From NCBI GenBank assembly GCA_964424615.1, contig CAYRIU010000033.1:247-64246 (forward strand): DNA of 64,000 nt. The letters are read 5' to 3'. Positions 1,373 through 46,935 of this stretch are shown piece after piece (within the stretch, counting starts at the first letter, position 1; each line of letters begins with the position of its first letter). A program made the translations under genes and the position numbers. The notes under the pieces were generated by a model that saw only the letters and a program-made list of their open reading frames with translations, searched no databases and had not been told where the DNA came from. This DNA is from an uncultured Gammaproteobacteria bacterium (GTDB taxonomy: Bacteria; Patescibacteriota; Patescibacteriia; UBA1558; GWA2-36-10).

Positions 1373-4321
1373 TAAGGTATCAATGACTGATTCCAAGTTT
1401 GTGAGTAAATTTTTAGTCAAATAATCAAATTCAATTTTTATTTGTAGATTTTGGTATAGCCAATGGGGATTTTTTTCTTGGAGTAAAGAAATATTTTTGA
1501 GATTTGGTTGTTTGATAAAATTGATTGTCAGCCAATGTTTTGTCTGACTTTTTTGATTGCTGATATTGATAATATCTTTGTTTTGGCAAAGTATTTTTAT
1601 TTTTTGTAAATGCCAGAGATTAGCAATATTTTTTTCAGCTGCTTGATGTATGTTGTTTTCAATTTTTTCTAAGCTCCGTTCTTGGCTAATTTTTTGGTAA
1701 AAAATTATTTTTTCAGCAATACTTTTTTTGAAGTCAGTTGGCAGACTAGTATCAATCGGTAATTTTATCTCTACATCGCGCCAGTATTTGACTGGCTGAC
1801 CTTTGATTTCGCGGATAGTTTCAGAGATGAGCTGTTGGTAGAGTCCGAGGCCTATGGTTTTTACTTTGCCAGATTGGGCTTGGCCCAAGATTTGTCCGAC
1901 GCCACGCAGCTCTAGATCTTTGTTGGCTACTTTGAAGCCTTCGCCCAAGTTACTAGCTTGCTTCAAGAAACCTAGTCTTTGGCTAGCTAGTTTTGGTAGT
2001 TTTTCTGAGCTATGCATGAAATAGGCGTAGGCTTGGCGGTCAGAGCGACCGATGCGTCCGCGTAGCTGATGTAGCTGTGATAGACCAAAGCGATTAGCTT
2101 TGTGGACTAGTAGGGTGTTGGCGCGTGGTATGTCTAGGCCATTGGCAATGATGGTCGAACACAATAAGACATCAATCTGTCCAGTATCAAAATCATGCAT
2201 GACTTGGGCTAATTTTTCGTCTTCCATTTGGCCATGAGCAATAGCTACTTTTATTTTTGGTAAGAGTTTGGTTAATTTTTTGTAAGCTAAATCAATAGTC
2301 TCTACTTGATTGTATAGGTAGTATACTTGACCTTGGCGAGCTAATTCTTGCTGTATAGCCTCCACTACAATTTGGTCATTTTCTTCGACTACTTTGGTGA
2401 TGATATTTTTGCGATCTTTGATTGGGTCATTGATCAGACTGATATCTTTGATCATAGATAGAGCCATGTTGAGAGTGCGGGGGATTGGTGTGGCAGTCAG
2501 TGTCAATAAATGTATATTAGCGCGATGTTTTTTGAGCTTTTCTTTGTCTTTGACACCAAAATTTTGCTCTTCGTCAATGATTAGTAGCTGTAATTTTGGA
2601 AAATTGATATCCCGTGATAGTAAGCGATGAGTGCCAATGATAATATCAGCTGTACCATCGCTGATGGCTGATAAATTTTTTTTTATTTCTTTTTCTTTTT
2701 GCCAACGAGTCATCAGCACTACTTTGACACCAGATTTTTCAAAACGACTGATAAAATTATCATAGTGTTGTTGAGCTAGAAGCGTAGTCGGACAGAGTAG
2801 GGCGACTTGGAAGCCATTGGCGACTACTCTGGCTGCTGCTCTCATTGCTACTTCAGTTTTGCCAAAGCCCACATCACCACAGACTAGGCGATCCGATGGA
2901 TATGGTCGACTGAGATCGTCCAAAGTTTCTGTGATAGCCTGGGCCTGAGAAGGAGTGAGAGTATAGGGAAAACTTTTAGCTATTTCTTCTTCTATTTTTT
3001 GTATTTTCAAAGCCGGACTTTTTTGTAATTTGCGGGTAGCCTCAACCAATAATAGCTGATTAGCTAGTTCCCAGGTTTGGTCTTTTATTTTTTTGAGGGT
3101 TTGGGGCCAGGTATTACCGACGGATAGCCTATGTATTTTTGGGTTAGCAGGACCTATGTATTTTTCTAGTTTGTCAGCTAGGTCCACTGGTACAAAGAGC
3201 GTGTCATTTTCAGCATAGGACAAGACAAAGTATTCGCGAGTCAGGCCGTCGACAGGCATCGTGGTCATTTCTTTGAGTAGAGCAATACCATGATCACGAT
3301 GGACTACCAAGTCACCGATAGTAAAGTCCGAACGAAATTCTTGGGCTACATAGTCAGTATTTTTGTCCTCAGCAAAAAACAAAGAATCATTGACTAGGAT
3401 TATTTGTTGTTTTTCAGCATAGATAGCTTGTGGCCAGCTCAAAGCTTGCTGCCAATCATAGAGCGAACACTGAATATTATTTTCTTTGATCAATTTTTGG
3501 GCTAGTGTTTTATTTTTAGTGAGCCAGATTATTTTTTCTCCTTTTTTCTGCTCTAAGAAGTAATAATAATTTTTTTGTTGACCTAATATATTATCAATTG
3601 ACTCAGTTTTGAAGTAATCTTTGCCCAAGGGGTCAAAAATAATTTGGTGGTTATTAATATTATTGTCTAGGGCAATATCTGTATCAGCTATCAGTAAAAC
3701 TTGCTCTGGCAAAGAAGTGATAAATTTTTCTTTGTGAAAGCTAGACTTTGGCCAAATATCCAGCTCATTTATTGGGTGTTCGGCATAGATTTGGTTGCTA
3801 GCAAAATAAACTATTTTTTCTATTTTATTTTCATCATAATTGAGACGAAATATTTTGTTGTCTTGGAAAATATCAACAATAGAGCCACGGATACTAAAAG
3901 TAAATTCTGTAAAAGCTTGGGAGTGTCGCTCAAAACCAATTTTTATCAAATCTTCAGTCAAAGTATGGAGATGATAGTATTCGTTGGTATGCAGAGTGAT
4001 TTTATTTTCATTGAGATCTGACCACTGTGGCGTCAGGCTATCGAGGTTGTTTTTGGTGGTCAAAACAATACTATCCTGAAGGCGATGGAGGGCGATGAGT
4101 GTTTCTAGGCTAGCATCGTCTGTATCTGGCCAAGCAATCACTTTTTTTTGATCAATATTTAATTCTTGAGACCAGAGTTTGAGTAAATCCAACCAAGTTT
4201 TTATTTCTTTATTATTTTCCAAAATACACAAAACCGCCCTATTTTCCTGAAAGAGGGGGGTGTGAAATAGAGCTAGACTAAGACTTGCACTATCTGCTGC
4301 TGTAGCAATGCGGACTTTCAC
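1370..4321 (-). CDS. mfd: transcription-repair coupling factor Mfd
   Basis: 983 aa. Superfamily-2 helicase motifs (GDVGFGKTEVAMRAA, DEEQNFGV, HGQM...) and TRCF-like C-terminus. About 150 aa shorter at the N-terminus than E. coli Mfd. Confidence 0.9.
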   Translation of the reverse strand: MKVRIATAADSASLSLALFHTPLFQENRAVLCILENNKEIKTWLDLLKLWSQELNIDQKKVIAWPDTDDASLETLIALHRLQDSIVLTTKNNLDSLTPQWSDLNENKITLHTNEYYHLHTLTEDLIKIGFERHSQAFTEFTFSIRGSIVDIFQDNKIFRLNYDENKIEKIVYFASNQIYAEHPINELDIWPKSSFHKEKFITSLPEQVLLIADTDIALDNNINNHQIIFDPLGKDYFKTESIDNILGQQKNYYYFLEQKKGEKIIWLTKNKTLAQKLIKENNIQCSLYDWQQALSWPQAIYAEKQQIILVNDSLFFAEDKNTDYVAQEFRSDFTIGDLVVHRDHGIALLKEMTTMPVDGLTREYFVLSYAENDTLFVPVDLADKLEKYIGPANPKIHRLSVGNTWPQTLKKIKDQTWELANQLLLVEATRKLQKSPALKIQKIEEEIAKSFPYTLTPSQAQAITETLDDLSRPYPSDRLVCGDVGFGKTEVAMRAAARVVANGFQVALLCPTTLLAQQHYDNFISRFEKSGVKVVLMTRWQKEKEIKKNLSAISDGTADIIIGTHRLLSRDINFPKLQLLIIDEEQNFGVKDKEKLKKHRANIHLLTLTATPIPRTLNMALSMIKDISLINDPIKDRKNIITKVVEENDQIVVEAIQQELARQGQVYYLYNQVETIDLAYKKLTKLLPKIKVAIAHGQMEDEKLAQVMHDFDTGQIDVLLCSTIIANGLDIPRANTLLVHKANRFGLSQLHQLRGRIGRSDRQAYAYFMHSSEKLPKLASQRLGFLKQASNLGEGFKVANKDLELRGVGQILGQAQSGKVKTIGLGLYQQLISETIREIKGQPVKYWRDVEIKLPIDTSLPTDFKKSIAEKIIFYQKISQERSLEKIENNIHQAAEKNIANLWHLQKIKILCQNKDIINISNQKSQTKHWLTINFIKQPNLKNISLLQEKNPHWLYQNLQIKIEFDYLTKNLLTNLESVIDTL

Positions 4322-5025: not shown

Positions 5026-5315
5026 ATTTTTTTCTCTAAAAAACTGCCATCCCAAGGATCTTGAGAGGGCAGTGAGATTAAGTACTTTCAATATATAGTA
5101 GGAGCCAATATTTGTCAAGAAATTGAGATATATCTTAATATTTCAGCAATTCATAGTTTTTATTCAGAGGATTAATAGAATAACATCTCGCCCCGCTACT
5201 AGTGAGTAGCGGGGTCAATATAAAGTAAATGTGTATATTTTGGCTAAAATAAGTCTAAAGATTATACATTTTACCTAATATTAGCCAAAATATATATTGT
5301 TACCCCCCCAAGACC

Positions 5316-5344
5316 TTGACAAATTTTGCCAAAAGGAGTATAAT
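5316..5344 (+). promoter_or_regulatory. sigma70-type promoter (TTGACA-17-TATAAT) driving the structured leader and GC-rich ORF
   Basis: Perfect consensus -35 TTGACA (5316-5321), 17-nt spacer, perfect -10 TATAAT (5339-5344). Confidence 0.65.
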
Positions 5345-5384
5345 TATATATTAATTAGATCATTTAAATATTACTTGCGAAACA

Positions 5385-5545
5385 ATGTAGTCATAGCCAA
5401 AAGTGACCGAAGGTCACCCTGAACTTGTTTCAGGGTCTAGTTTGAAGAGATTCTGAATCCGCCGGTTGGCGGATTAGAATGACGACGTAAGTCGGTTATT
5501 TCTGGCTATGACTACCAAACTGGTAGCCCGCTAGCAGTGTACGGC
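5385..5545 (+). promoter_or_regulatory. highly structured GC-rich 5' leader RNA (multi-hairpin junction closed by a 10-bp long-range helix); candidate riboswitch or cis-regulatory RNA
   Basis: GUCAUAGCCA (5390-5399) pairs with UGGCUAUGAC (5503-5512). Inside are hairpins GUGACC-GAAG-GGUCAC, CCCUGAA-CUUGU-UUCAGGG, AUUCUGAAUCCGCC-GGUU-GGCGGAUU-AGAAU and CGAC-GUAA-GUCG. A further GGCACAUGUGCC palindrome precedes the SD. Confidence 0.5.
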
Positions 5546-5571
5546 ACATGTGCCAAACAAGGAGTGAAGAC

Positions 5572-6147
5572 ATGTCTTCGTATTCCGAAGGTCAGACCCA
5601 TCAGCTGATGAATAGCTTGGAAGCTGTCGGCTACACCGCCGACGACATCACCAAGCTTGGTCAGTCCAAGCACCTGCCGCAGATCAAGGATGTGCTTTAC
5701 GGCCACGCTGTCATCAGTTACCACCAGCCCATCATCGACTGCGACGCCGCGCCCTTCCTGCCCAACGGCTGGAGTGTGGAGAAGCATACCAAGGGCGGTC
5801 AGTTCGAGTGGAACCCCACGCGGGTGAAGCTCTATCTGGCCAAGAGCCAGAAGCCCGGCAAGTTCGTCGAGGGCAACCAGCTCCGCAAGGAGCTGGAAGG
5901 ACAAAAGGTCCTGAACGCTAACGTTCTGGACGACCTGCTCGCCAACCCCACCTTCATCCCCGAGGAGTGGAAGGGCAAGGCGGTCTTCTTCTGGGGGACC
6001 ATCTACCGCAGCCGCGCTGGTCTCTTCGTGTGCTATCTCGGCTGGAACGACGGCAAGTGGGGCCGGGGCTGTAGTTGGCTCGGCGACAACTTCTACGATA
6101 ACGGTCCCGCCGCGGTTCTCGCAAGTATCCCCGCCTGCAACGTCTGA
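5572..6147 (+). CDS. hypothetical protein encoded by a high-GC (about 60%, GC3 >80%) foreign-looking gene
   Basis: SD AAGGAGTG before the ATG at 5572. Strong third-position G/C bias with aag/gac/ggc/ctg/atc codons. Protein composition is protein-like, whereas the opposite-strand ORFs are Arg/Pro/Ser junk. No known domain recognised. Confidence 0.6.
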   Translation: MSSYSEGQTHQLMNSLEAVGYTADDITKLGQSKHLPQIKDVLYGHAVISYHQPIIDCDAAPFLPNGWSVEKHTKGGQFEWNPTRVKLYLAKSQKPGKFVEGNQLRKELEGQKVLNANVLDDLLANPTFIPEEWKGKAVFFWGTIYRSRAGLFVCYLGWNDGKWGRGCSWLGDNFYDNGPAAVLASIPACNV

Positions 6148-6250
6148 GCGTAGTGATGGCGGGCAGGTAAGTCCTTTGGACTTTGTCCGCCAGCTGGCGG
6201 ATGGATCTCCTTAGATCTTTAGACCTTAGTCCTTGGGCTGCGTTTCTCTC

Positions 6251-6297
6251 AAGCTCCGTGTTCACCTCGTGTGGATGCGGAGCTTCTTCTTTTTTTA
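6251..6297 (+). terminator. intrinsic terminator of the GC-rich cassette
   Basis: AAGCTCCG...CGGAGCTT stem followed by CTTCTTTTTTT. Confidence 0.6.
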
Positions 6298-6434
6298 ATT
6301 TTATTTTTTTCTCTTAGGCTTAATTAGATATCTGATAATCTTGTTTTATCTAGGTTTAAAATCCTCTAAGTCTTCCCTTTTTTAAATAATTTGCTATAAT
6401 ATAGGCCTTATAATTAGTATAATTTAAAAATAAG

Positions 6435-7733
6435 ATGCAAAAGTTTAAATCACTTATCTTGTTTCTTTTGGAAATTGCTGTTTTATCGGCAGTTTTATTT
6501 TTTTTACGAGACAAGCTAGTACACAGTCACAATCATGAAATCAAAGAATATATGACTATGCTGGTAGACATTGCCTTTTTGGCTTTGTTTGCTTCTTTTG
6601 GTGGACGCTTGGCAAAGATGTTAAAGATTGCTCCAATGGCTGGCAAGATTATCATGGGTATAGTGGCTGGCCCGGCTTTGTTGGGGGTGATAGATCCCTA
6701 TGCTCATGGTGTGGAACTTGCGCGTTTAGCCGGTGTATTGTTTATTTTGTTTGAAGCTGGTTTGCATTTTGATATGGAGCTACTCAAGAAAAATTTTCTT
6801 ATTTCTACCATCATTGCTTTTGTCGGAGTTTTGATACCCTTGATTAGCTTTGCTTTACTAGGACATTATGTGATACATCTAGCTTGGGTACCAAGTATTT
6901 TCTTGGGTGGTATTTTTACTGCTACTTCCGTTGGTTTATCAGTCGAGGCTTTGAAACGGGCTGGTAAGCTAGAAACCAATATCGGTAATCAGATAGTGGG
7001 AGCAGCGGTGATTGATGATATCTTGGGCGTTATTGTTTTGACTGTGCTAGCCAAGCTATCATCTACTGAAGAAGTAGTCGGGGGCATCAACCCTTTTGTG
7101 TTGCTGGCTATCAGTGTTGTTGGTTTTGCTTTGGCTACATATTTCTTGTGGCAGTGGGGCGTAGCTCACAAGATTGCTACTTATCTTGGCAATAAGTATT
7201 CTGATAATAGCACAGGCATTTTTACTAGATTTTTCTTTGGTATGCTGATGCTTGGCGGATCATTGGCTGCGGTCATTGGTCTAGAGCCAGTTTTGGGAGC
7301 TTTTGGTATGGGTGTAGTCTTGTCCAAAGTTGATAATGAGATCAAGCATCACACTTGGGAAAAAATTGAAGGCTATATGCATATTTTTGTTGGTGGCTTT
7401 TTGGTCAGTATTGGTACTATGTTACCAAAATCAGCTGTCACGGATTACAGAGTGTGGCTCTGGGCCATCTTGTTTATGATCATAGGTTTTGGTGGCAAAT
7501 ATCTGACAAAATATTTGATAAAGGATAAGCATGAGGGTGTGTTGGTTGGCTTGGCTATGACTATTCGTGGTGAAGTGGGCTTGGTCTTCGTGGCCGTAGC
7601 TCTAGCTAACAAAGCCCTAGATGAGACCATGGCTTCGGCTGCACTACTCGCGGTTATTCTAGTTACAGTTGTTGGTGCTATTTTGTTTGAAAAAGCAGTC
7701 ATGAAAGAAAAACAACCAGCAGCAGTAGTTTAG
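6435..7733 (+). CDS. cation:proton antiporter (CPA2/Kef-type Na+/H+ exchanger family)
   Basis: 432 aa, about 12 TM segments; MAGKIIMGIVAGPALLGVI and later glycine-rich helices typical of CPA2 transporters. Confidence 0.7.
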   Translation: MQKFKSLILFLLEIAVLSAVLFFLRDKLVHSHNHEIKEYMTMLVDIAFLALFASFGGRLAKMLKIAPMAGKIIMGIVAGPALLGVIDPYAHGVELARLAGVLFILFEAGLHFDMELLKKNFLISTIIAFVGVLIPLISFALLGHYVIHLAWVPSIFLGGIFTATSVGLSVEALKRAGKLETNIGNQIVGAAVIDDILGVIVLTVLAKLSSTEEVVGGINPFVLLAISVVGFALATYFLWQWGVAHKIATYLGNKYSDNSTGIFTRFFFGMLMLGGSLAAVIGLEPVLGAFGMGVVLSKVDNEIKHHTWEKIEGYMHIFVGGFLVSIGTMLPKSAVTDYRVWLWAILFMIIGFGGKYLTKYLIKDKHEGVLVGLAMTIRGEVGLVFVAVALANKALDETMASAALLAVILVTVVGAILFEKAVMKEKQPAAVV

Positions 7734-11283: not shown

Positions 11284-11787
11284 ATGAAAAAAACAACTAT
11301 TAGTATCATAGTAGCTATTGCTCGCGACAGGGGAATAGGCTATCAAAATAAATTATTGGTGCATTTGCCACCAGACTTGAAACACTTCAAAGCTATCACT
11401 TCTGGTCATGCAATCATCATGGGTCAAAACACTTTTGTGTCTATCGGTAAATCTTTGCCCAATAGAGAAAATATTATTTTGTCTTTGGATAAAAATTTTC
11501 AAGCTGACGCTTGTCGAGTTTTTGATAATATAGAAACTGCCTTAGAATATGCTAAACAGTCAGAGCAAACAAAAAATCCAGAGAATCCAGAAATATTTTT
11601 TATTGGAGGTGCTTCTATCTATAAACAAGCCATCCAATATGCTGATAAATTGTATGTTACTTTGATTGATGCTCAATATCCGGCCGATACTTTTTTTCCA
11701 GATTATAGCGATTTTAAAAATATCATCAAAGAAGAAGAGCAAGAATATGAGGGCTTAAAATTTAAATTTTTGGAATTAATAAAATAA
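11284..11787 (+). CDS. folA: dihydrofolate reductase
   Basis: ISIIVAIARDRGIG...LPPDLKHFKAITSGHAIIMGQNTF DHFR signature. Confidence 0.9.
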   Translation: MKKTTISIIVAIARDRGIGYQNKLLVHLPPDLKHFKAITSGHAIIMGQNTFVSIGKSLPNRENIILSLDKNFQADACRVFDNIETALEYAKQSEQTKNPENPEIFFIGGASIYKQAIQYADKLYVTLIDAQYPADTFFPDYSDFKNIIKEEEQEYEGLKFKFLELIK

Positions 11788-32030: not shown

Positions 32031-32080
32031 AAAAAACATCCGCCATCCGCCAAGCGGTGGAAGCAGATGTTTTTTTATTT
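32029..32080. terminator. GC-rich terminator carrying the CCGCCATCCGCCAA-N-CGG.GGA core module
   Basis: A8-CATCCGCCATCCGCCAAGCGGTGGAAGCAGATG-T7; lies between convergent genes; shares its core with terminators at 38187 and 42856. Confidence 0.55.
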
Positions 32081-38186: not shown

Positions 38187-38243
38187 AGCCACTCTATTTC
38201 CGCCATCCGCCAACCGGCGGAGGCGGACGGGGTGGTTTTTTGT
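38187..38243 (+). terminator. GC-rich terminator with the CCGCCATCCGCCAACCGGCGGAGGCGGA core
   Basis: Nested stems GAGCCACTC.../TCCGCC-AT-CCGCC-AACC-GGCGG-A-GGCGGA.../GGGGTGG then T6. Confidence 0.6.
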
Positions 38244-42855: not shown

Positions 42856-42920
42856 CCGCCCAGTCCCGTCCGCCATCCGCCAATCGGCGGAGGCTAACGG
42901 GACTGGGTGGTTTTTTATTT
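42856..42920 (+). terminator. long GC-rich terminator containing the CCGCCATCCGCCAATCGGCGGAGG core
   Basis: CCCAGTCCCGT-CCGCCATCCGCCAATCGGCGGAGGCTA-ACGGGACTGGG then T6. Confidence 0.65.
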
Positions 42921-42972: not shown

Positions 42973-43052
42973 CCCACTGTAGCTTAGCCGATGAAAGCAC
43001 CCAGGTAATAAGAGCTGGGAGATCGTAGGTTCAAATCCTACCAGTGGGACCA
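42973..43052 (+). tRNA. tRNA-like gene with encoded CCA and a non-canonical 10-nt anticodon loop (identity undetermined; could be an unusual tRNA or a pseudogene)
   Basis: Acceptor CCCACUG/CAGUGGG. D-arm GCUU-AGCCGAUGA-AAGC. Anticodon stem CCCAG/CUGGG enclosing GUAAUAAGAG. Variable AGAUC. T-arm GUAGG-UUCAAAU-CCUAC, discriminator A, CCA. Own promoter TTGACA (42931)-16-TAACAT and terminator at 43086. Confidence 0.55.
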
Positions 43053-43436: not shown

Positions 43437-44825
43437 ATGACATTAGACACTTTAATTTTATTAGTTGTTTGGTTGATTAATTTAGGTTTATTATTTTTTA
43501 TACTTTTTAATAAGAATAAAAAAAGACGTTGGCCTATCTTTACGATGGTTTTTTTGTTGTGGCTCTGGCAGAGTAGTGAGCTGGTTAATATTTTATTTTT
43601 ACTCAAAAGTCCTTATATACTATTAGGAGTCAGAGCTGGATTGTTGCCAACCTTGTATATTGCGCCAACTTTTGTTGTCTTAAGCTATTCTTTAGTTCAT
43701 CAATGGAACAATGTCCGCAAGTGGCAACATCTTTTTTTCCTGCCAGCTTATCTGATGTCACCTTTTGTTTTTAGTAAATACAATGTCAGTAATATCATAG
43801 TCGGTCCGAGTAGTGTCTCTTATGAGCCAGGGCCGATTTATTTTGTTTTTGCTATTTATTTTATCACTTTGATGTCTTGGGGTTTGGTAGTGTTGATTCG
43901 TCAGCGTAGTCGCTACGATCAGATAGTCAAGACACAGATTGATTATATTTTTGTAGCCACTGCTCTGACAGCAGCTTTGGCTCTTTTGTTTATTTTTATC
44001 TTGCCACTCTTGGGCGTGACAGCTTTTTACTACATGGGGGTCAATAGTAGTGTCATCTTTACGGGCATTGTCACCTATGCTTTGTTTCGTTATCGCTTCT
44101 TGGATTTGAGAATCAGTTTTTACAAAACTTTGGTCAATTTTGTGCGCTTGCTTTTGACGGGCTTGGTCTACGCTGTGCTTTATGTGGTATTGATTGGTCC
44201 AGTGCAAGTAGATTTTTCCGATACCATAAATAGTATTTTGTTTTTGGTATTTTTTGGTTTGACTGCACCGCTAGTCTTTGGTCTAGCTAGCTCGGCTGCT
44301 AAATTTTTTATTTATCATCCTTTGGAGCGTATCTTTCAAGCCGAAAATAATATTGCCACGATCTTGCGCTCTAGTCGCGATCTCAATCGCCTGATGTCCT
44401 CTCTGTCCAAGGAGATTGCCCAAGTGATTGATTACAAGGAAATATTTATTTATCTAGCCAAGCGTGGTGATGCTAATTTTTTTCATCAAGTTTATCCAGT
44501 CGGGGAGAGGACATTGCACATGGAGCATGATGTTTTGTTGCAGTATCTAGCCAAAAAACAAGATTTATTGCATAGTGCGGAGGTGCATTATCTTGATATT
44601 GATTCGAAGCTTAGCCAAGAGTTAGTAGATCATCATATTGACATATCTTTCCCAATATACTATAATAATCAGCTTTTGGGAGTATTGATGCTAGATAATA
44701 ATAAAAAGCTCCTTTATCAGCAACAGTTGGATTTTTTGCGAGAAGTAAATAAATATTTAGATATTGCTATTGGTAGTCTTCTGCTTTATCAGCAGGCCAT
44801 GGCCAATAGGGAAGAAAATAAGTAA
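43437..44825 (+). CDS. 7TM sensor-domain protein (histidine-kinase-type 7TM N-terminal region) with C-terminal GAF-like domain, no kinase domain
   Basis: Seven predicted TM helices in the first about 290 aa, with similarity to the N-terminus of the HK at 51938; C-terminal 170 aa looks GAF-like. Confidence 0.5.
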   Translation: MTLDTLILLVVWLINLGLLFFILFNKNKKRRWPIFTMVFLLWLWQSSELVNILFLLKSPYILLGVRAGLLPTLYIAPTFVVLSYSLVHQWNNVRKWQHLFFLPAYLMSPFVFSKYNVSNIIVGPSSVSYEPGPIYFVFAIYFITLMSWGLVVLIRQRSRYDQIVKTQIDYIFVATALTAALALLFIFILPLLGVTAFYYMGVNSSVIFTGIVTYALFRYRFLDLRISFYKTLVNFVRLLLTGLVYAVLYVVLIGPVQVDFSDTINSILFLVFFGLTAPLVFGLASSAAKFFIYHPLERIFQAENNIATILRSSRDLNRLMSSLSKEIAQVIDYKEIFIYLAKRGDANFFHQVYPVGERTLHMEHDVLLQYLAKKQDLLHSAEVHYLDIDSKLSQELVDHHIDISFPIYYNNQLLGVLMLDNNKKLLYQQQLDFLREVNKYLDIAIGSLLLYQQAMANREENK

Positions 44826-44833
44826 TTAAATCT

Positions 44834-45529
44834 ATGATTTTTACAGATTCTCAAAATTTAATATTATTAATTGCGGCTTTGATTAATTTATCGATGAGTT
44901 TATTTATTTTTAGCAGAGGAGCAAAAAATAAGGTAAATTTCTACTTTGGTTTAGTGACTTTGTTTAATTTTTTCTGGGCTACCTGTCTAATAGTTATTAA
45001 TTCAGCGATTAGCTATGAACTTACAAGGTTTTTTGGTAGCTTTGTCTACCCAATAGCTTTGATGGTAGTAATTAGCTTATTTTATTTTTCTATTTATTTT
45101 CCTTATGAATCTTTTAGGGTGAATAAAATTTATAAATGGTTAATTAATTTTTCTATAATTTTTTATTCTATTTACTGTAGTTTATTCTATAAATTTTTTG
45201 TCCCTAAAGTCGATTTACTGCCAAAGGTGATTGTTTATTATGAACCAGTAGTTTACACAATTTTTAGTGTCATTTTGATTACACTGATGTTATTTGCTAT
45301 CCATATTATATACAAGAAATATAAAATAGCCACGGGCATATTTAGAGTACAATTGATGTTGATATTAATTGCTGTTATTATTGGCACGGCAGCTGGTTGT
45401 TATTTCAATTTGATAGCCATGTATTATAACAATTTAGCTTATAATCACTTAGGTCCACTATTTACTTTGTTTATTAATTTAGTAGTATTTGGTTTCATTA
45501 TTTCTTCTAGAGAAAAAATAAGTAATTAA
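44834..45529 (+). CDS. standalone 7TM sensor-domain paralog 1 (HisKA_7TM-like)
   Basis: 231 aa, about 7 TM helices; N-terminus and C-terminal SREKISN tail conserved with the next two genes. Confidence 0.55.
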   Translation: MIFTDSQNLILLIAALINLSMSLFIFSRGAKNKVNFYFGLVTLFNFFWATCLIVINSAISYELTRFFGSFVYPIALMVVISLFYFSIYFPYESFRVNKIYKWLINFSIIFYSIYCSLFYKFFVPKVDLLPKVIVYYEPVVYTIFSVILITLMLFAIHIIYKKYKIATGIFRVQLMLILIAVIIGTAAGCYFNLIAMYYNNLAYNHLGPLFTLFINLVVFGFIISSREKISN

Positions 45530-45533
45530 ATAT

Positions 45534-46232
45534 ATGATTTTATTCGCTTGGCAAAATATTGTATTAATTATTACTGGTTTGGTTAATCTAGTCATGGGCA
45601 TTTTTGTATTAAAAAGAGGCTTGAGGAGTAAAATTAATTTATATTTTTCTACTTTGGTATTTTTTAATTTTTTGTGGAGTATTTTTATAGTGGGGGCTTT
45701 TTCATCTAATAATCTATCGATGGTTAATTTTTTTGATAAAACAACTAATTTATTTGGCATTGGTATTATTTTATCATTATTTTACTTTACTTTATATTTT
45801 CCATATCAGTCAGATAAAATAAGCAGTTTTAAGACAAAATTAATTTGGTTTTCTTCAATAGTTATTTCTTTTATGATTTACACCAAATGGTTTGTCGTTA
45901 ATACTATTTGGGTTGCAAGGCCATTTAGTTATATTTCATATTATAATAAATACGGTTATTTTGTTTATACCTTATATTTTTTTGTTTTTGCGTGCTGGTC
46001 AATATACTTTTTATTTAAAAAATATAGGAAAGTAGAAGGAGTTACTAGGTTGCAGTTAAAACGATTAATGTTATCAATTGTGGTGGGTTTGATTTGTGGA
46101 GCTTACTTTAATTTAGTATTGAACTACCTCGGTGTTTTTAATCTTGGTTGGCTTGGGCCGTTTTTTACCTTATTTATGAATATAGTAGTTTTTCAAACTA
46201 TTAGATCACCTAAAGAAAAAATAAGTAATTAG
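45534..46232 (+). CDS. standalone 7TM sensor-domain paralog 2
   Basis: 232 aa; same architecture; ends SPKEKISN; intergenic junction AAAATAAGTAATTAAATATATG conserved. Confidence 0.55.
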   Translation: MILFAWQNIVLIITGLVNLVMGIFVLKRGLRSKINLYFSTLVFFNFLWSIFIVGAFSSNNLSMVNFFDKTTNLFGIGIILSLFYFTLYFPYQSDKISSFKTKLIWFSSIVISFMIYTKWFVVNTIWVARPFSYISYYNKYGYFVYTLYFFVFACWSIYFLFKKYRKVEGVTRLQLKRLMLSIVVGLICGAYFNLVLNYLGVFNLGWLGPFFTLFMNIVVFQTIRSPKEKISN

Positions 46233-46236
46233 ATAT

Positions 46237-46935
46237 ATGAGTATTTTTTCAACACAAAATTTTATTTTATTGGTTGCTGCTTTTGTAAATTTATTTATGA
46301 CATTTTTTGTCTTTAGACGTGGCATCAAAAATAAAATAAATTTATATTTTGGATTGTTAACCTTTTTTAATTTTACTTGGAGTTTAGGATTGTTAATTTC
46401 TAGATCCATTGAGAATATTAGTTTGGTAGCTATAGTAGCTAGAAGTACTTATATTTCAGCTTTAGCTATAGTTATTTTTTTATTTTACTTTGTTCACCAT
46501 TTTCCCTATCAGGCGGAAAAATTAAAAATTTATACTCATATTTTCATTTTATTTCCGGCTATTATTTTATCGTTTATAGTTTATACAAAATTTTTTATTC
46601 TTGATACAGTTAGAGCTTATAGTAATTTAGAGTACATATCTTATTACAATAAGTCTGGTTTTTTTCTTTATGCTATTTATTTTGTTATTATAGCTATTTT
46701 AGCTTTAAAGAAGTTATTTAAAAAATATAATTTATCAGAAGGTTTATTAAAACAGCAAATAAAAATGTTATTAGTCTCTATCATAATTGGTTTATTATTT
46801 GGTAGTTATTTTGATTTGTTTATCCAATATTTTAATGATTATAGATTTAATTGGCTGGGTCCTATATTTACCGTATTAATGAATTTTATTGTTTTCTTTT
46901 TTGTTATTTCCCCTAAAGAAAAAATCAATGGTTAA
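46237..46935 (+). CDS. standalone 7TM sensor-domain paralog 3
   Basis: 232 aa; same architecture; ends SPKEKING. Confidence 0.55.
   Translation: MSIFSTQNFILLVAAFVNLFMTFFVFRRGIKNKINLYFGLLTFFNFTWSLGLLISRSIENISLVAIVARSTYISALAIVIFLFYFVHHFPYQAEKLKIYTHIFILFPAIILSFIVYTKFFILDTVRAYSNLEYISYYNKSGFFLYAIYFVIIAILALKKLFKKYNLSEGLLKQQIKMLLVSIIIGLLFGSYFDLFIQYFNDYRFNWLGPIFTVLMNFIVFFFVISPKEKING

Follow-up and report, generated by a model that had tools for sequence, protein, structure and literature searches.

In the target gene mtd of Bordetella phage BPP-1, the cis elements described for diversity-generating retroelements (DGRs) are the variable repeat (VR), the initiation of mutagenic homing (IMH) sequence and a hairpin/cruciform located after the VR (PMC3240598). 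DGRs are especially common in Patescibacteria, in which the DGR clade is almost wholly cell-encoded and the targets carry no recognisable domains (PMC8144416). Structured RNAs linked to reverse transcriptases (RTs), such as RT-10 and other RT-associated motifs, were described by Weinberg et al. 2017 (PMC5737381). In the DGR literature that we compared, neither a conserved structured 5' leader nor a complement of the VR end in the 5' untranslated region (UTR) is described. No description of a leader of DGR target genes was found in the DGR surveys either; Paul et al. 2017, on the DGRs of the candidate phyla radiation (CPR), lay outside the comparison, and an earlier description is possible. We looked at such a leader in a 64,000-nt stretch of contig CAYRIU010000033.1 (hereafter the window), where ~220 nt located 5' of the start, at 5572, of a 191-aa open reading frame (ORF) are strongly structured. 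The explanation that we favour, with slightly better than even confidence as a whole and with clearly less for its single steps, is that this leader is a conserved RNA of DGR target genes acting in cis at the post-transcriptional level, and not a metabolite riboswitch.

Hairpins that sequester the Shine-Dalgarno (SD) sequence are known from translational operators, such as the MS2 replicase operator with its AUG in a hairpin, and from the leaders of ribosomal-protein genes. In RNA phages (MS2/Qbeta, 'Min Jou' type), long-range RNA-RNA interactions couple translation, and leader hairpins are processed by RNase III in the lambda N leader, the rnc leader and T7 R1.1. The leader studied here adds to the known DGR system a conserved element that combines such known parts, namely a hairpin sequestering the SD, a long helix and a pairing over a long distance.

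The comparison was based on 80 homologous gene loci fetched from genomes, and ~85 homologous leaders were compared in all when metagenome loci were included with those of the family. Their common order is ACUUGCG, the long helix P1, the hairpin P2, the motif YCCNCURGCA, the hairpin P3 and the SD with a start-codon hairpin. P1 corresponds to a closing helix, GUCAUAGCCA/UGGCUAUGAC, that the original prediction, made from the DNA letters of the window, had given as 10 bp; the helix is present and longer, since positions 5387-5408 pair with 5494-5515 over 21 bp with one A.C mismatch. Its consensus reads UUUGCCAUAGCAGAAAG, an apical stem and loop, and UUUUCUGCUGUGGCAAA, and the window carries the subtype GUAGUCAUAGCCAAAAG...UUUCUGGCUAUGACUAC. 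For the pair count, 33 leaders were aligned by sequence only with MAFFT and submitted to RNAalifold, with column shuffles and slid partners as controls. RNAalifold predicted P1 alone, with 20 pairs; 95.6% of the cells were paired vs 78.5% in column shuffles and 35-50% with slid partners, and compensatory, both-sided changes were detected in 16 of the 20 pairs. Moreover, G.U/U.G pairs of P1 are conserved on the + strand, for example in 24/33 and 27/33 sequences at two positions. A covariance model of P1 was built from loci other than the window and run on family, metagenome and viral loci. In the window, its sole match lies at 5384-5520 on the + strand (46.1 bits, E = 2.8e-8), the minus strand scoring 30.9 bits. 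In all matches except the weak L052, which gave a tie, the + strand scored 8-30 bits above the - strand, and therefore the structure belongs to the sense transcript. P1 was found in 51 of the 84 family loci on which the model was run, always on the sense strand and just upstream of the target gene, typically by ~100-170 nt. Among the P1-positive family loci, it was never next to an RT or to a template repeat (TR), the source copy of the VR. The features of the transcription unit in the window are as follows.

5316..5344, + strand: sigma-70-type promoter TTGACA-17-TATAAT, 12/12 consensus match, with similar hexamers at the same relative position in related loci
5372..5380, + strand: leader element UACUUGCGA, 5' arm of the long-range pairing with 6119-6127; ACUUGCG is conserved just 5' of P1 in most loci
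5387..5408, + strand: P1 5' strand GUAGUCAUAGCCAAAAGUGACC, from the fold, the alignment pair counts and the covariance-model match
5409..5493, + strand: P1-loop insertion of 85 nt, with hairpins at 5417-5435, 5449-5482 (CCGCC-GGUU-GGCGG at 5459-5472) and 5483-5494
5494..5515, + strand: P1 3' strand GGUUAUUUCUGGCUAUGACUAC, from the fold, the pair counts and the covariance-model match
5512..5526, + strand: P2 hairpin CUACCA-AAC-UGGUAG, read in the sequence and in the minimum free energy (MFE) fold
5527..5537, + strand: apparently single-stranded element CCCGCUAGCAG, consensus YCCNCURGCA, conserved across loci and target-protein families
5543..5554, + strand: P3 mini-hairpin GGCA-CAUG-UGCC, from the fold; its counterpart elsewhere is a longer GCAAC..GUUC-loop-GAAC..GUUGC
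5559..5564, + strand: SD sequence AAGGAG, conserved before the start codon in nearly all loci
5561..5586, + strand: predicted start-codon hairpin GGAGUGAAGA-CAUG-UCUUCGUAUUCC, with AUG 5572-5574 in the tetraloop and the SD bases GGAG paired with codons 4-5
5572..6147, + strand: ORF of 191 aa, homologue of Patescibacteria DGR variable (target) proteins, orphan copy
6005..6127, + strand: VR-equivalent segment, ending in the family-wide CGCAAG boundary and aligning to the TRs of related loci
6119..6127, + strand: long-range 3' arm UCGCAAGUA, complement of 5372-5380
6130..6167, + strand: 38-nt insertion with a CCCGCC...GGCGGG hairpin, from comparison with L083, L085 and L001 and from a pattern search
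6171..6202, + strand: 3' UTR hairpins GUCC-UUUG-GAC, which many family loci keep immediately 3' of their stop codon, then GUCCGCC-AGCU-GGCGGAU
6251..6295, + strand: intrinsic terminator, a 15-bp stem followed by a T-run, at the end of the monocistronic unit

The perfect promoter of the original prediction is thus in place, as are the two further hairpins that it had put before the SD (5512-5526 and 5543-5554, the SD being at 5559-5564). Its statement that the structure stands far above background was borne out by the MFE of 5350-5580, which is -83.2 kcal/mol vs -55.2 +/- 4.3 for dinucleotide shuffles (z = -6.6, equalled by 0/200 shuffles). It had also proposed a cis-acting structured RNA in a 5' leader, and this agrees with the sense-strand position and with the homologues whose stems covary. 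The close relatives of the window (loci L081-L085, L001 and L002) have kept the promoter and the closing helix nearly unchanged, and likewise both hairpins downstream, the SD and the start region; the content inside the closing helix is wholly different. The P1 strands, the P2-P3 segment and the SD-ATG region are 86-100% identical among near relatives, a conservation equal to or above that of the ORF.

Metagenome loci were retrieved with a 17-mer of the P1 3' strand, which gave 97 stretches, 80 of which were fetched as loci and filtered by the P1 model. P1 was confirmed in ~31 of the 80, before other small proteins, the remaining loci being chance matches. Many of these leaders precede proteins of 160-220 aa with different N-terminal parts. 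Where the flank sufficed, a TR was detected in five metagenome P1 loci, four of them also with an RT (L143, L155, L140 and L127b) and one without (L094). Altogether, the leader goes with DGR target genes of several protein families, and not with one protein. On contig ERZ1292623.616 (L127), P1 leaders are present at 3845-3901 and at 11371-11426, before two different small target-type genes; a TR lies near one of the genes and an RT-type motif on the contig, which fits a multi-target DGR with one leader per target. Orphan targets keep the leader too, 13 of the 37 P1-positive loci with enough flank having no local TR. An association with phages was also considered and rejected, as a scan of viral contigs with 15-mers gave chance matches only and the P1 model matched 0/80 viral loci. 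This absence agrees with the cell-encoded nature of the Patescibacteria DGR clade (PMC8144416).

When the whole window was compared with Rfam 15 at the gathering threshold, the only match was a tRNA at 42973; at E <= 10, nothing meaningful was found in 5100-6500, and 20 related loci gave no match in the leader. In line with the original prediction, the leader could therefore be assigned to no known class. Sub-threshold fragments of Spot_42, GibS and group-II models were rejected as weak. The leader shares with RT-10, the RT-associated motifs and the DGR TR-spacer RNA that it is a structured RNA linked to DGRs, but it differs from them by its position, which is 5' of the target gene and in no case adjacent to the TR or RT, and by the lack of an Rfam match. 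The motif is well supported and apparently uncatalogued (not in Rfam 15), with an unexpected link to the VR boundary. A c-di-GMP-II riboswitch (L011, 5146-5265) and a LOOT RNA (L056, 4292-4410) were observed a few kb from DGR cassettes and appear to be unrelated neighbours.

The 191-aa ORF has 948 homologues of ~185-195 aa, and the named records belong to Patescibacteria (CPR) groups. It gave no match in Pfam, NCBIfam, PHROGs or PADLOC. Its AlphaFold2 model has a predicted local distance difference test score (pLDDT) of 90.8, and the structural matches of the model are weak and C-type-lectin-like only, which would be compatible with a DGR variable domain and falls short of proof. The GC content of the gene is 0.60 vs 0.37 for the window, and homologues show the same discrepancy in many lineages, e.g., 0.56-0.62 vs 0.32-0.47 for their genomes. 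High GC is a property of the whole family and therefore no sign of foreign origin, so that the foreign (actinobacterial) gene put forward in the original prediction has to be given up.

In 39 of the 80 fetched loci, the last ~125 nt of the gene are repeated ~320-400 nt downstream with 80-93% identity, and 619 of the 685 mismatches between the two copies in these 39 loci (90%) fall at adenines of the downstream copy. This is the VR/TR signature of DGRs. An RT ORF with a YxRYADDF motif is located downstream in ~30 loci; in L059 the RT is an RVT_1 protein and the adjoining 120-aa ORF is bAvd. As in known DGRs, the family carries at its C-terminal end a VR that derives from a TR through changes at adenines, RT and bAvd are encoded alongside, the homology breaks off sharply, and a small hairpin follows the stop codon directly. 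In contrast, neither TR nor RT nor Avd accompanies the window copy within 64 kb: self-blastn of the ORF with its 3' flank revealed no TR-like copy in the window, and neither a YxDD motif scan nor tblastn revealed RT or Avd there, when the same tblastn recovered, as a positive control, RT and Avd homologues in 30 and 34 family loci. For this reason the ORF was filed as an orphan homologue; judged from its sequence, it is a homologue of DGR targets and not a demonstrated active target. Orphan copies are common, 28 of the 64 loci with enough flank lacking a TR.

The VR equivalent of the window (6005-6124) is 64-73% identical to that of the closest relatives vs 86-88% for the rest of the ORF, and it ends with CGGUUCUCGCAA at 6113-6124. 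In 38 loci the VR/TR homology stops after GCAA, the VR reading ...CGCAAG-U-stop and the TR ...CGCAA/CUCUCUUCAUUUCUC, the slash marking the boundary. In the window, the CGCAAG boundary is at 6120-6125 and the post-stop hairpin GUCCUUUGGAC at 6172-6182, with a 38-nt insertion now between them. This insertion separates the ATC at 6127-6129, the last sense codon of the ancestral ORF, from the ancestral stop, TAA 6168-6170; with it comes an in-frame stop, TGA 6145-6147, by which the ORF gains 6 codons. The insertion-free loci L083, L085 and L001 read gcaagtatcTAA/TAGgtcctttgg, and relatives have gcaagtatcTAAgtcctttgg in place of 6130-6170. A small hairpin directly after the stop codon or VR end (GUCC-UUUG-GAC, with variants such as UCUUGGGA) was observed to be conserved in many loci, and it may correspond to the post-VR hairpin/cruciform on which homing depends in the Bordetella phage. 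A DGR-type cruciform with a GRNA loop was also sought among the CCGCC hairpins and rejected, as their loops GGUU and AGCU do not fit the consensus. On the TR side, the polypyrimidine CUCUCUUCAUUUCUCUC is strongly conserved in the 3' flank of the TR in L002-L079, and the spacer RNA that serves the RT probably begins there.

A link between the leader and the VR end was detected as a long-range pairing. The leader element UACUUGCGA is the exact 9-nt reverse complement of UCGCAAGUA, located ~750 nt downstream, and the leader-tail duplex of the window has an energy of -16.7 kcal/mol vs -6.2 +/- 1.9 for shuffled leaders. Among related loci, the two arms match over 8-12 bp that reach through the stop codon, and their flanks covary (UUCAACUUGCG/CGCAAGUUGAA, UUCAACUUGCA/UGCAAGUUGAA, GUCAACUUGCA/UGCAAGUUGAC, AAUUACUUGC/GCAAGUAAUU, GCUAACUU/AAGUUAGC and UUUUGCGA/UCGCAAAA), also in other target families (GCUACUUGC/GCAAGUAGC and AGAGCUAUUUGC/GCAAGUAGCUCU). 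For the count, the arms were anchored by sequence only (YTTGC and GCAAR) and joined by an N linker, the concatenates being artificial; 68.9% of the cells were paired vs 62.6% in shuffled sets (0/500) and 23-42% with slid partners. Pair 6:33 switches between U-A (19) and A-U (10), and pair 8:31 is C-G (28), U.G (5) or U-A (1), with zero unpaired cells. The 3' arm straddles the end of the VR/TR homology, and the TR (GCAA/CUCUC) would pair over 5 bp only. Across families, the reading frame of GCAAG changes (..A S stop, ..S K stop and ..R K stop) while the motif itself persists, and therefore the constraint acts at the nucleotide level. Like the interactions of the Min Jou type, this is an 8-12-bp helix between distant parts of an mRNA, one arm of which would be unwound by translating or terminating ribosomes; the difference is that a cellular mRNA is involved here, in which the 5' UTR would pair with the stop-codon region of a single ORF, and that the consequence is predicted.

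The SD and AUG are predicted to be sequestered in a conserved and covarying stem-loop, with an MFE of -8.1 kcal/mol in a 29-nt window. The covariation was assessed on 38 distinct leaders whose ORF starts with AUGUC, by permuting the 5' and 3' halves between loci 2000 times. The untranslated strand covaries with codons 2-4, with a mean of 4.87 consecutive pairs vs 2.97 +/- 0.20, a value reached by 0/2000 permutations. Among the covarying pairs are GAAGAC/GUCUUC, GAUGAC/GUCAUC, GACGAC/GUCGUC, GUUGAC/GUCAAC and GUAGAC/GUCUAC, and other N-terminal subfamilies have versions such as GAAC-NN-GUC-AUGNNN-GAC-NN-GUUC, GUUAGC-UAUG-GCUAAC or GUCGU-GAUG-ACGAC. This arrangement is alike that of MS2-type operators, with the start codon in the loop, the SD in the stem and an untranslated strand that covaries with the first codons; it differs in that one N-terminal subfamily has no such hairpin and that the binding protein is hypothetical.

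Between P1 and the SD, compensatory variants of P2 and P3 were judged by eye. Those of P2 are CUGC/GCAG, CUGCA/UGUAG, CUAUA/UGUAG and CUGCU/GGCGG. In P3, the outer and inner stems vary in a compensatory manner between subfamilies, the stem being invariant within the window's own subfamily. Since the 5' strand of P2 overlaps the base of P1 (GUAG 5387-5390/CUAC 5512-5515), the P1 base and P2 are mutually exclusive. The pentamer GGURG is present twice, just 5' of the P1 core (5385-5390) and in the P2 3' strand (5522-5526), both copies being complementary to CUACC in the 3' base of P1 (5512-5516). In L070 the copies are near-identical (CAGGUAG and CAGGGUAG), and several loci are alike; this arrangement suggests two alternative conformations. 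Two other pairings were discarded: that of CCCGCURGCA with the P1 strands, weighed by eye, was inconsistent between subfamilies, and that of ACUUGC with CAAG just 5' of the SD, which appears in the MFE fold of the window, was ruled out as CAAG is not conserved in relatives. An upstream in-frame ATG at 5548 (199-aa ORF, with the 8-codon extension MCQTRSED before MSS) was also rejected, since it has no SD and neither its frame nor its openness is conserved (L001, L016). This ATG lies in the P3 loop and is used by gene callers in the homologues P0019, P0042 and P0059; the extension is likely to stem from misannotation.

The interior of P1 is very different in its distribution from the helix that encloses it. 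The original prediction described four enclosed hairpins, and all are indeed present in the sequence (GUGACC-GAAG-GGUCAC, CCCUGAA-CUUGUU-UUCAGGG, the CCGCC-GGUU-GGCGG hairpin at 5449-5482 and CGAC-GUAA-GUCG). However, hairpins 1 and 4 compete with the canonical apical stem of P1, which survives in the window as UGACC 5404-5408/GGUUA 5494-5498. The 85 nt enclosed by this stem (5409-5493) take the place of a loop that usually has 3-17 nt. Most P1 matches are 55-72 nt long vs 137 nt in the window. The terminal loop has ~3-30 nt of variable sequence in most of the ~85 leaders, the full range being from a few nt to ~100 nt, and expansions above 20 nt occur in about eleven of them, with unrelated sequences. 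The 85-nt insert is 94% identical in L081 and missing from L083-L085 and L001. The four-hairpin interior is confined to the nearest relatives, L081 and partly L138, L016 and L162; the pieces of the insert shared with the latter three show no compensatory changes. Similar GC-clamp hairpins are found in the P1 loop of L084/L085, L005 and L051.

Hairpins of the form CCGCC-N(3-30)-GGCGG recur at 6 independent sites of the window (5459, 6131, 6187, 38200-38226, 38792 and 42856-42890) when 0.09 matches are expected; three are inside the 1-kb DGR-target cassette, and the others in or near terminators. A 17-nt piece of the interior hairpin (ATCCGCCAACCGGCGGA) reappears without mismatch, reversed in orientation, in the terminator at 38205-38221. 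The copies share only ~14-17 nt, the similarity stopping at the hairpin, and no longer repeat unit was found. The three hairpins of the cassette (P1 loop, stop codon and 3' UTR) thus resemble the modules of unrelated terminators in the manner of repetitive extragenic palindromic (REP) or miniature inverted-repeat transposable element (MITE)-like palindromes, but lack a longer repeat unit; they may represent a small hairpin module that is mobile or recurrently created. The restriction of the insert to near relatives and the recurrence of the palindrome indicate that the 'junction' is a lineage-specific insertion, in part a palindromic module, and this insertion is probably dispensable. The alternative raised with the original prediction, that the hairpins are repeat debris, thus holds for part of the interior, where the GC-palindrome module found in terminators is present, and not for the enclosing helix, which covaries across loci.

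According to the explanation that we favour, the leader would be the local version of a conserved RNA module placed before DGR target genes of several families in Patescibacteria. The SD/AUG hairpin would hold down translation initiation, while the long-range 5'-3' helix would tie the leader to the point at which ribosomes terminate. Ribosomes at the stop codon would open this helix and free the 5' element beside P1, and the alternative between the P1 base and P2 would then allow a translation-dependent remodelling of the leader. P1 itself may serve as a docking or cleavage site for a protein, which could be an RNase III-type enzyme, a DGR factor or a host factor. It was taken as a protein recognition or RNase III-type site because its sequence and wobble pairs are conserved and its loop is tolerated. 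P1 resembles the RNase III-processed leaders by its ~21 bp with a small mismatch, such sites having a helix of ~20 bp or more, and by its proposed loop-independent function; the differences are the strong conservation of the helix sequence and a cleavage that is putative.

Several points weigh against this explanation. The P1 model misses ~40% of the family loci, L051 at least being a false negative. The start-codon hairpin is absent in the MSDL/MSEL N-terminal subfamily, and start windows are just modestly more stable than those of 39 other genes in the same loci (p = 0.012). In the long-range pairing, pair 13:26 has 10 unpaired cells, and the five core pairs carry no weight because they are fixed by the rule by which the sequences were selected; the complementarity of leader and VR end could equally be read as a DNA inverted repeat. 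The window copy may be decaying, as it is an orphan into which sequence has been inserted at three places (P1, stop codon and 3' UTR). We infer the transcription start (~5351-5356, from the position of the promoter), the full-length leader and any processing from the DNA alone, and the trans-acting factor that would bind P1 is hypothetical.

A metabolite riboswitch, with P1 and a four-hairpin junction as the aptamer and the downstream hairpins as the expression platform, was suggested by the original prediction from the combination of P1 and a multi-stem junction. Like riboswitches, this RNA is located in a leader and has no coding potential; it is highly structured and absent from Rfam, its unpaired stretches ACUUGCG and CCNCURGCA are conserved, the exclusive pairing of the P1 base and P2 offers a possible switch, and the SD is sequestered, although no ligand-dependent logic follows from these pairings. 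Yet no multi-helix junction or pocket is conserved: most of the ~85 leaders have a short and variable P1 loop, the insert is found in the closest relatives only, and what is conserved is mainly a long Watson-Crick helix. Nor is the gene context metabolic, as the downstream genes encode DGR variable proteins of several families, without enzyme or transporter domains and with no single pathway, and metabolite riboswitches do not usually govern genes of this type. We consider the riboswitch very improbable. The same insert is what speaks for stacked genomic GC-palindrome and terminator modules without function, given the excess of CCGCC sites in the window and in the 1-kb cassette, the 17 nt that hairpin 3 shares with the terminator at 38205 and the lack of the insert in close relatives. 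This argument reaches the 85-nt insert only, however, since dozens of species retain the enclosing helix and the hairpins after it, with compensatory changes, and for the leader as a whole such debris is highly unlikely.

Elements acting at the DNA level, such as protein-binding or recombination sites (e.g., for gene inversion) or cruciforms, would show inverted repeats that covary equally well; DGR targets do use a DNA hairpin/cruciform downstream of the VR (PMC3240598), and the ORF is bracketed by the 9-11-bp repeats ACTTGCGA...TCGCAAGT. Against this, the G.U pairs conserved on the + strand are A.C mismatches on the other strand, the model prefers the + strand in all matches but the tied L052, and the departures of pair 8:31 from C-G are U.G (5) and one U-A, none being unpaired. 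Moreover, the spacing of the P1 arms, from a few nt to ~100 nt, is unlike that of a dimeric DNA-binding site, and no recombinase gene adjoins the locus, so that we give this possibility scarcely any credence. A pure stability or processing element, with P1 as an RNase III substrate or 5' stabiliser, no switching and plain structure in the other hairpins, would fit a 21-bp near-perfect helix that tolerates any loop, as is typical of RNase III sites, together with a consensus promoter and a strong SD that suggest high expression. It would leave the conservation of the P1 strand sequence itself, with its specific G.U pairs and A.C mismatch, without a role, and the covarying long-range and start-codon pairings would be superfluous for a mere stabiliser; we hold it to be quite unlikely. 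Finally, the leader could be an RNA of the DGR mechanism that takes part in mutagenic retrohoming by its complementarity to the VR/TR boundary (GCAA/G and the flank beyond), marking or opening the integration site as RNA:DNA or RNA:RNA or separating VR from TR transcripts, with P1 recruiting RT-Avd. Its tracking of targets of different protein families, the pairing of the 5' element with the junction where TR homology ends and the maintenance of GCAAG in different frames all agree with this, while the position of P1, never beside TR or RT, its retention by orphan targets (the 13/37 given above) and the SD/AUG hairpin, which points to translation control, do not; such a role is rather unlikely. 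That the leader gates or guides mutagenic retrohoming, or couples translation to the integrity of the newly written 3' end, with P1 docking the DGR machinery or a nuclease, is an idea that we regard as possible and still on the improbable side.

Some further observations concern the surroundings of the leader. Upstream, at 5235-5294 and 22 nt from the -35 box, TATATTTTGGCTAA and TTAGCCAAAATATA form a perfect inverted repeat of 14 bp around a 32-nt spacer. The right arm of this repeat is kept upstream of the promoter in L081, L083-L085, L001 and L002, as is a CTAATATTAGCC palindrome, and the repeat may serve as an operator or bind an activator. On the minus strand, a strong hairpin, CCCCGCUACU-AGUG-AGUAGCGGGG (5190-5216), lies downstream of a promoter-like site that runs from 5288 to 5261 (10/12), and a short divergent transcript could arise there; the sole Rfam signal of this minus-strand region (5185-5290) is Spot_42-like, with 25.9 bits vs a gathering score of 80. 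Elsewhere in the window, a ~45-nt terminator module, TCCGCCATCCGCCAAYCGGCGGAGGC...GGGTGGTTTTTT (repeat families D5 and D17), is present at 32039, 38199 and 42869, with at least three uses. Tandemly spaced repeats with a ~700-nt period were seen at 45452-46350 and 43451-46293, in an AT-rich stretch (GC 0.25), and probably reflect repeated gene segments.

These results remove a false riboswitch candidate and show that the signal of a foreign high-GC gene is intrinsic to the gene family. In its place, the leader can be described as a new cis element of DGR target genes, which joins a helix of 21 bp with covariation to a hairpin at the start codon and a pairing that reaches the VR end. The P1 covariance model provides a handle by which DGR targets, even orphan or remote ones, could be traced in fragmentary metagenomes, and the leader is a possible entry into regulation in organisms that are very hard to study. 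If the reading in terms of retrohoming or translation coupling were true, the DGRs of Patescibacteria would carry a so far unrecognised RNA component, the role of which would go beyond the tuning of expression.

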